The notes below the pieces were generated by a model, which was not told where the DNA came from, did no database searches, and was given only the letters and a program-made list of their open reading frames with translations. Shown piece by piece: positions 15,709 to 17,202 of a DNA stretch of 64,000 bases. Numbering within the stretch: position 1 is the first letter of the stretch; each line of letters starts with the position of its first letter. The DNA is from Psilocybe cubensis (lineage: Eukaryota): contig CM039007.1 of NCBI GenBank assembly GCA_017499595.2, positions 1,860,001 through 1,924,000 on the forward strand, in the 5' to 3' direction. A program made the position numbers and the translations under genes.

Positions 15709-17202
15709 ATGACTTCTGTATGTCTTTTTTGTATAGTTTAGGAAAACGCCTTTGACACTTTTTCGATAGCCAAAAGTTGGTATCAATGGGTATGGAACTA
15801 AGTTCCTCAGGGACAACAGTTACTTGAGATTTCAAAATGACCAACCTCGCCTTGTATAAACACTAGATTTGGTGAGTATATCATACATGAATTGTCTTTG
15901 AATAAGAATATAAATTCGTTCTTTTTCAGGCAGAATTGGTCGTATTGTTCTTCGCAATGCTTTGGAGTTAGGCAACCTTGATGTCATAGCCATAAACGAG
16001 TATGTTGACCTGAACCCTCTCAAGTTCTTCATCTAACACCACATAGTCCATTCCTTTCTCTAGACTATATGGTACATATCAGACATCTGATATATTCGGC
16101 GCAACCTCACACAATTTTCTCAGGTTTACTTGTTCAAGTATGACTCGGTACACGGGCGCTACAAAGACCCTGTGGAAGCAAAAGACGGGAAACTGTACAT
16201 CAACGAAAGGCCTTTGCACGTCTTTAACGAGAAAAACCCTGCCGCTATCAAATGGGGCTCCGTCGGCGTTGAATATATTGTCGAGTCGACTGGGATCTTC
16301 ACTACGATTGATGAGTGAGTGTCGCTCGCGCCGTCCTTTATGTTTGTTGCATCATGATGTTTGAGCTCTGTGAAAGAGCCCAAGCCCATTTGAAAGGCGG
16401 GGCGAAGAAAGTAGTTATCACTGCTCTATCCGACGACGCACCAATGTATGTCTATGGTATCAACCACAAAGAGTACAAAGGGGAAATTGATATCGTGTGT
16501 CCCTGTTTTCCAATTCAGAATATTCTTTTTTCTTGACCAATTTTTGAAATAATTAGGTCTCCAATGCATCGTGTACGACCAACTGTCTTGCACCTCTTGC
16601 TAAGATCGTGAATGATAAATTCGGCATCATCGAAGGGTTAATGACTGCCGCCCATGCGACAACTGGGACATACAAAACGATGGACGTGTCGTTTCAAAAA
16701 GACACCTTGTACGATACCAGTGGATGTAGCGCAAACAGCAGCTCCATTCCATCATCATCCACTGGGGCTGCCAAAGCAGTTGGAAAAATTATCCCAGAAT
16801 TGAAAGGAAGATTAAAGTACGTTTGGTTGGTCATGTATATTTTCCTAACTCGTATTAAAAGTCGATATCAGTGGAGTATCCTTTCGCCTCCCGATTATTG
16901 ATGCCTCCGTCGTTGATCTTGTTGTCCGAACTAGGATCCCAATGACAGAAGAAGAAGTCATCGACACGTTCAGACAGGCTGCTGAAAGCCCAGAATATAA
17001 AGGCATTATGGGCTTTGTCAACGAGCCGCTCGTCTCGTCGGACTTTGTTGGCAGCAACTACTCTTCGATTTTTGACGCTCAGTCATGTCTCGTGATGAAC
17101 GACAACTATGTGAAGATGCTTTCTTGGTACGATAATGAGTGGGGGTATTCCCGTCGTGTCTGCGATTTGGTTGCCTATATTTCCAGTGTCACGCCGGAAT
17201 AA
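15709..17202 (+). CDS. Divergent glyceraldehyde-3-phosphate dehydrogenase paralog B (remodelled S-loop)
   Basis: [27 protein letters not shown], catalytic [50 protein letters not shown]. The spliced frame is intact, but [13 protein letters not shown] is replaced by [16 protein letters not shown]. Confidence 0.9.

Follow-up and report, generated by a model that had tools for sequence, protein, structure and literature searches.

Analysis of the window (a 64,000-nucleotide stretch of Psilocybe cubensis contig CM039007.1) revealed three glyceraldehyde-3-phosphate dehydrogenase (GAPDH) genes in this intron-rich agaric, one of which, referred to here as B, combines a heavily altered S-loop with an otherwise maintained sequence. 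We put the probability at about one half that B is a folded GAPDH-like subunit, under selection to this day, in which constraint on the S-loop has been lifted and which is predicted to have probably little canonical tetramer activity. This reading is supported by a duplication shared with the sister gene A, an intact and spliceable gene, transcript pieces, and a density of changes in the loop far above that in the rest of the protein. Against it stand the failure to find an orthologue of B, faster evolution of B outside the loop as well, and the unchanged state of the partner residues in the NAD domain. The features concerned are listed below with their coordinates in the window.

15709..17202, plus strand: GAPDH paralog B, 342 aa; exon model by homology to A, all introns GT-AG, open frame
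15709-15717, 15770-15789, 15867-15871, 15930-15999 and 16047-16071, plus strand: exons 1-5 of B
16124-16314, 16377-16494, 16557-16816 and 16872-17202, plus strand: exons 6-9 of B
16572..16574, plus strand: catalytic Cys, in an unchanged SCTTNC motif
16647..16751, plus strand: strand end and S-loop, both altered (over 32 columns, 17 changes in B only and 1 in A only)
16647..16649, plus strand: Ala two residues before the catalytic His (equivalent of human T177A)
16653..16655, plus strand: catalytic His
16689..16691, plus strand: Ser at position 188 (CCG in A, TCG in B)
16752..16760, plus strand: extra Ser before the TG phosphate site, TCA TCA TCC
16885..16887, plus strand: substrate-phosphate Arg (FR motif), kept
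11160..12607, minus strand: GAPDH paralog A, sister of B, with canonical loop and the same 8 intron positions; spliced contigs in X1 and X2
18072..19557, plus strand: housekeeping GAPDH C, which follows B in the same orientation at a distance of 869 nt; spliced contigs

The exon model of B has a coding length of 1029 nt and eight GT-AG introns, with zero stops or frameshifts. No stop, frameshift or broken splice site that would mark a pseudogene was seen in the window sequence or among the listed indels of the DNA run X7, and the Pfam domains PF00044 and PF02800 both scored above cut-off in B. A search of the genome (46.6 Mb, 21 contigs) returned three GAPDH matches, all within the window (3/3 candidates scored). 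Exon 8 of B is 100% identical to the database protein P0001, labelled as Psilocybe cubensis GAPDH, and B agrees with P0001 from exon 4 onward. The P0001 gene model lacks the micro-exons bearing the Gly-rich NAD motif (15709-15929), and its 5′ end looks wrong; the same can be said of P0122, the model for A, which reads through intron 2 (12456-12548).

Over 16557-16798, the loop included, a contig from the RNA-like run X1 matched the window with 0 differences and 0 gaps, and an X7 contig spanning 16112-19800, exons 6-9 of B included, showed a single gap, in intron 7. Agreement of the two contigs over the loop demonstrates that its altered sequence is not an assembly error and is common to other samples of the species. 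Two further explanations were rejected: a compensating double frameshift, as the alternative frames give no W-R-G-G-R, and a hidden intron within the loop, as the X1 contig runs straight through.

The initial annotation had described a 42-residue peptide in which W-R-G-G-R is lost and the segment is four residues longer. The peptide is present by frame translation at 16641-16766, inside exon 8 (16557-16816), and the distance from His to the TGA motif is 35 residues in B and 31 in A and C, the gain consisting of three residues after KD and one Ser. The description of the loop of paralog A as almost identical to that of the housekeeping enzyme is also accurate, since A and C differ at one loop residue. 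In E. coli-type numbering, by which we take His176 of B to be human His179, the changes in the strand end and loop are T174A, V175A, A180G, Q182Y, V185M, G187V, P188S, S189F and H190Q, followed by the three additional residues, replacement of W193, R194 and G195, R197C, and four more. The extra Ser probably arose by slippage; the same extra residue was found in one other stored protein, P0505.

B thus departs from the conserved S-loop of type I GAPDH as tested by length, W-R-x-x-R and the last Arg. W-R-x-G-R and the canonical length were present in 234/234 parsed matches (237 were examined and 3 were not parsed). Among stored proteins, 489/505 span the loop; its length in these is 30-33, never 35, and W-R-x-x-R is found in 478 and the last Arg, which is Cys in B, in 486 of the 489. 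The comparison panels were chosen by similarity to B, and their composition is therefore of eukaryote/GapA type. Two insect entries, P0002 and P0003, carry two GAPDH units per chain (677 and 602 aa) and are possibly fused gene models.

Several searches were performed for a protein sharing the loop of B. With exon 8 against longer proteins, only the own-species P0001 exceeded 70% identity among the best 120 of 8000 that were scored. No relative with this loop was found with P0001 against full-length proteins, with exon 8 against short proteins (2578 candidates), or with the loop piece against 1.84 billion representatives, where one could hide inside a 50% cluster. Matches in metagenome contigs, from at least 79 loci, were 243-252 nt long, and none of 258 nt was among the matches listed. 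Since unannotated fungal genomes are poorly covered by such searches, the absence of an orthologue is weak evidence.

The claim that the catalytic Cys and His, STG, the FR arginine and the NAD-binding Asp remain, with no stop or frameshift, stood in full. At active-site and cofactor positions B is identical to A at 31/32, the exception being P121L, a neighbour of the NAD motifs that occurs in 0/214 panel proteins. The Gly-rich loop, Asp32-Pro33-Phe34, SCTTNC, His176, Thr179, Thr181, Thr208-Gly209, Arg231 and Asn313 are kept, as are the phosphate-site residues Ser148 and Thr150 together with Thr208, Gly209, Thr179, Thr181 and Arg231; here we assume that the GAPDH residue labels for active-site, phosphate and NAD positions apply to B. 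The role of the Thr/Gly pair in the Pi site follows the available text of PMC8162069. A score of 31/32 is no better than the rate of change outside the loop predicts (p 0.26), so catalysis has not been singled out for conservation. The AlphaFold model had a mean pLDDT of 86, and Foldseek gave TM values of 0.88-0.90 to the GAPDH fold. Residues 175-205 of B fell below pLDDT 50, but so did residues 178-198 of P0123, a Psilocybe cyanescens GAPDH used as canonical control, and the predicted disorder is consequently no evidence; the low-confidence span is 10 residues longer in B than in P0123, and one short strand is missing.

The origin of B was analyzed with a midpoint-rooted tree of 36 GAPDHs, in which A and B are sisters (support 99/83) and P. 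cyanescens P0123 is sister to both (100/98); B is a long branch, which makes its placement less sure. End branches were 0.49 for B and 0.11 for A, a 4.5-fold difference. A, B and P0123 group with proteins of Gymnopilus, Crucibulum, Cyathus, Panaeolus, Galerina and Laccaria amethystina, separately from the housekeeping clade of C, which is identical to P0185 at 322/338 positions. A and B share 237/337 residues and, in comparison with C, all eight intron positions and 49 alignment columns common to the two. Tandem gpd pairs occur in Agaricus and Coprinopsis. A second, less expressed gpd gene is described for the agaric Pleurotus eryngii in the available text of PMC11121823. The other members of the second Agaricales clade all have W-R-G-G-R and a loop of the usual length; of the 23 invariant loop positions 0-2 are changed in them, compared with 11 in B. 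As all of them are canonical, the altered loop must have arisen on the branch of B itself, after the duplication.

GC3 is 0.52 in A, 0.51 in B and 0.68 in C, which uses 43 codon types; codon bias is weak in both A and B. Introns 1 and 2 (15718-15866 in B, 12457-12601 in A) align better than shuffled sequences (0 and 1 of 300 shuffles), intron 8 weakly so (7/300), and the other five do not. The likeness of the introns at the 5′ ends could be explained either by slower change or by old gene conversion.

Other genes of the window were seen beside this group. Between A and B, a spliced transcript without a Pfam match is present in X1 and X2 at 13967-15161 (plus strand). The database model P0239 (588 aa) fuses this transcript to B, a fusion left unsupported by the separate contigs. 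Next to A lie a gene at 9360-10787 (minus strand), which by eye has motifs recalling an IPNS-like 2-oxoglutarate oxygenase and has no Pfam match, and an MFS transporter at 6593-8829 (plus strand) with a weak Pfam match. Three adjoining Ser/Thr-rich genes at 988-5790 (plus strand), each with one predicted membrane span and a basic tail and none with a Pfam match, are judging by sequence probably a tandem family of cell-surface proteins.

To describe the distribution of changes we used a panel of 214 full-length matches (320-370 aa), from which the three records of the window itself were excluded and in which 136 columns reach 97% conservation or more. B has changed at 11/23 of these invariant columns in the loop region (residues 174-205) and at 14/113 elsewhere, P121L and T226N among them; A has changed at 0/23 in the loop. 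Five of the 14 outside changes are also found in A, leaving 9. Clustering in the loop is significant whether 14 or 9 is taken (Fisher p 3e-4 or 2e-5), after correction for the choice of window (p 0.010 or 0.001), and when W193, R194 and G195, possibly replaced in a single block event, are left out (p 0.006 or 0.0007). With P0123 as outgroup, the 32 loop columns contain 17 changes in B only and one in A only, and the remaining 299 columns contain 41 in B only, 17 in A only and 19 that were not polarised.

Outside the loop, dS between A and B is 1.67 (95% range 1.15-4.5; 1.41 at four-fold sites) and dN is 0.163; within the loop dN is 0.45 (0.27-0.71), reaching 0.75 in its right half. On the assumption of an even split of dS, dN/dS of B is ~0.15 outside the loop, 0.5-0.6 inside and ~1 in the right half, figures that are rough because dS is near saturation. 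The gene is intact, as the initial annotation stated, and under purifying selection outside the loop. Within the loop, change proceeds at the neutral rate or below it, as expected of a segment freed from constraint rather than of one rebuilt adaptively, and positive selection is left unsupported.

Transcription was judged from run X1, which was only guessed to be RNA. Its contigs include spliced joints for both A and C and leave the intergenic bins 12682-13869 and 17137-18027 uncovered. Two of its contigs lie on exons 8 and 9 of B; the first loses three letters to clipping precisely at the start of exon 8, as splicing would give, and the second opens with the last base of intron 8, unlike a spliced product. 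B is probably transcribed. Runs X2 and X3 showed no cover of B, which carries no evidential weight, and contig depth is unsuited to ranking genes by expression. The initial annotation would have taken B for an incipient pseudogene if no expression, dN/dS near 1 and no orthologue sharing the loop were found. No orthologue with the loop was found; a transcript piece exists, and dN/dS outside the loop is ~0.15.

Strain variation was taken from run X7. All six listed indels within B are intronic (p 9e-4 under a uniform distribution, introns making up 465 of the 1494 nt). The p value is optimistic, as introns hold more runs; 12 of 13 indel rows were covered. At a loose end of the X7 sequence, an Arg codon of exon 4 differs at two bases and is synonymous. 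At 15952-16140 there are two haplotypes with 12 and 8 differences in 189 nt; elsewhere X7 showed 29 differences in 3688 nt downstream and 9 in ~2100 nt over A. Polymorphism is locally high in the 5′ half of B.

How the altered loop might act can be proposed from the structure of the enzyme. W193, R194 and R197 presumably are the residues by which the S-loop caps the cofactor and locks the neighbouring subunit, and Tyr39, Tyr42, Tyr46, Asp47 and Ser48, all unchanged in B, are taken here to be its partners in the NAD domain. T226N falls at the position of human T229 (mutated in 4WNI), which we assume to be a dimer-interface residue. Roitel reportedly described in 1999 (PMID 10587431, cited in PMC9287376) engineered GAPDH dimers that were inactive yet bound NAD. 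According to the available text of PMC11164685, the S-loop lies against the cofactor and shuts the NAD site, and it extends to the neighbouring subunit and stabilises subunit contacts; in some structures it is ordered by NAD (PMC5119734 and PMC8695597, available parts), and only one interface of the GAPDH tetramer is larger than O-R (PMC5385343, available part). We propose that B arose from the second Agaricales GAPDH by a lineage-specific duplication and that its S-loop was freed from selection while the rest of the protein was maintained, normal GAPDH activity presumably being supplied by A and C. B would fold, bind NAD and possess a reactive Cys/His pair; deprived of W193, R194, R197 and P188, its loop would neither cap the cofactor nor lock the neighbouring subunit. 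The protein might then exist as a dimer, a loose tetramer or a minor subunit of mixed tetramers with low phosphorylating activity on glyceraldehyde 3-phosphate, and might be kept for a moonlighting or regulatory role that uses the fold and the active-site thiol and not the canonical loop. The loss of both tetramer and activity is what we infer for B.

Alternatively, B could be a dead or dying duplicate in which constraint fell stepwise, lesions in the loop ended activity and the frame is open because death was recent. It would be in keeping with this that searches recovered no orthologue, that two redundant copies adjoin a gene with a 4.5-fold longer branch, and that P0001, a record without the first exons, scores 340 against a cut-off of 367 on the type I model TIGR01534 (an HMM built for prokaryotes), P0123 reaching 415. 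In neutral simulations 0/400 runs were stop-free after 46% of residues had changed; however, a neutral spell of 0.04-0.1 changes per site left the frame stop-free in 31% to 7% of simulations, so recent death of B is compatible with its open frame. Neutral decay of the whole gene, on the other hand, cannot cluster changes in the loop, and it has to be reconciled with 6/6 listed strain indels being intronic, the one two-base change being synonymous, transcript pieces in X1, and the keeping of all 16 splice dinucleotides though 5/8 intron interiors no longer align with A above shuffles. On balance we consider a dying gene doubtful. It is unlikely, to a slightly greater degree, that B is a working dimeric or loosely assembled eukaryotic dehydrogenase without the canonical S-loop or tetramer lock, having a new property such as NADP use (through Ser188) or heptelidic-acid tolerance (through Ala174) acquired independently of the route taken by HepG, the resistant isozyme of heptelidic-acid producers. 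Taken as a specific proposal, an active dehydrogenase of changed cofactor or substrate, using NADP as do A. nidulans GpdC and K. lactis Gdp1 or another aldehyde as does Epd, is very unlikely. P188S does give the plastid-type Ser, which in plastid GAPDH binds the NADPH 2′-phosphate and favours NADP (PMC3728087, available text); NADP-using fungal isozymes are on record (PMC11502334, available text), and the catalytic dyad and both phosphate sites are kept. But of the NADP-type marks compared, B has Ser188 and lacks the changed 32-35 loop, Arg77 and a small residue at 187: Asp-Pro-Phe, the NAD fingerprint, is unchanged, Lys77 is as in A, and Val187 replaces the small Ala of plastid enzymes (PMC3728087, available text). 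Moreover, Ser188 acts across the very axis that the loop changes should disturb, and CCG to TCG is a single transition among 17 loop changes. A role like that of Epd, suggested in the initial annotation, is contradicted by the Epd models, which B scores far below cut-off (TIGR01532, 226 versus 531; PRK13535, 223 versus 539) and far worse than the type I GAPDH model, ordinary agaric GAPDHs giving 254 and 269 on TIGR01532.

The initial annotation also proposed toxin resistance, pointing to a Thr-to-Ala change in the resistant Trichoderma isozyme. This was correct, HepG and the T. koningii isozyme both having Ala at human position 177 (PMC8162069, available text), and among 215 full-length sequences the residue occurs in B alone (0/214 panel proteins). 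That HepG relays resistance to the phosphate site through the 180-208 region, which is altered in B, likewise speaks for an active, heptelidic-acid-tolerant GAPDH serving self-protection or directed against Trichoderma-type competitors. In the available text of the same paper, however, T177A is not the primary determinant: it lowers kinact ~4-fold and leaves an enzyme ~64-fold more sensitive than HepG. The main determinant is position 203, which is Asn in both B and C, and A232S-F233V confers none; Ser at human 232, present in B, is common in any case (87/214 panel proteins). HepG combines normal catalysis with a 180-208 region within 0.38 A RMSD of the human enzyme, and human I181Y is inactive. 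Nor does B lie in a suitable cluster. An exon-wise search placed the nearest terpene synthase match on the contig ~680 kb from B (28 matches; 31/31 candidates scored) and the nearest scored P450 ~146 kb away (92/369 candidates scored), Pfam gave neither family in the 51 frames scanned of the window's 123 long frames, and a word search of the available text of two Psilocybe natural-product papers (PMC9400892, PMC13096983) returned no mention of heptelidic acid. Tolerance in an active enzyme is for these reasons highly improbable, and the claim of toxin resistance was not upheld; self-resistance to heptelidic acid is unlikely, defence against the toxin of a competitor is possible, and for B a weakened or repurposed variant is a likelier description than a gene for toxin resistance. 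Among the stored pieces, 3/489 (P0353, P0388 and P0483) show Ala at the same distance before the catalytic His, together with canonical loops, and look more like HepG-type candidates than B does. The interpretation originally offered for B thus holds for an intact gene, constrained outside the loop and bearing the Thr-to-Ala change, and fails for toxin resistance and an Epd-like role.

Few parts of GAPDH are as fixed as the S-loop, which is regarded as necessary for tetramer assembly and activity. In B the loop has in effect been knocked out by nature and the chemistry spared, and a canonical sister lies nearby; as A is 70% identical, A-B loop swaps would test the role of the loop directly. 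Should B be active, the rule that GAPDH needs its S-loop would be broken; should it be inactive but selected, it would rank among the rare GAPDH pseudo-enzymes of eukaryotes, with a moonlighting role that can be separated; should it simply be dying, it is an ordinary spare duplicate. The titles and abstract openings searched, subscription papers lying outside, contained nothing about GAPDH paralogs in Psilocybe or about any naturally occurring GAPDH that lacks this loop. The reach of these considerations is limited by the fact that B has so far been seen in a single species.

Among known systems, B is closest to type I NAD-GAPDHs (EC 1.2.1.12; PF00044 and PF02800) of the second Agaricales clade, which it resembles in fold, domains, and catalytic and NAD residues; these proteins (P. 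cubensis A, P0123 and others) have the canonical loop, and the altered loop is peculiar to B. HepG (PDB 6M5X; T. virens, A. oryzae, T. koningii) is, as far as the available text describes it, similar to B in the Ala before the catalytic His, in Ser at human 232 and in being an extra copy beside a housekeeping enzyme. It differs in belonging to a terpene synthase/P450 cluster and in having a normal kcat/KM and a near-canonical 180-208 region, whereas B lies in no such cluster and its loop is longer and heavily altered. The NADP-using enzymes (plastid GapA/GapC1, GpdC, Gdp1) have Ser188 in common with B, which is set apart by its NAD-type Asp-Pro-Phe, Lys77, Val187 and descent from an agaric NAD-type gene. 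Epd, finally, has the GAPDH fold and the Cys/His dyad and, like B, an S-loop sequence that differs from the usual one; it has Met at position 179, where B keeps Thr, and on the Epd model TIGR01532 B scores below ordinary agaric GAPDHs.
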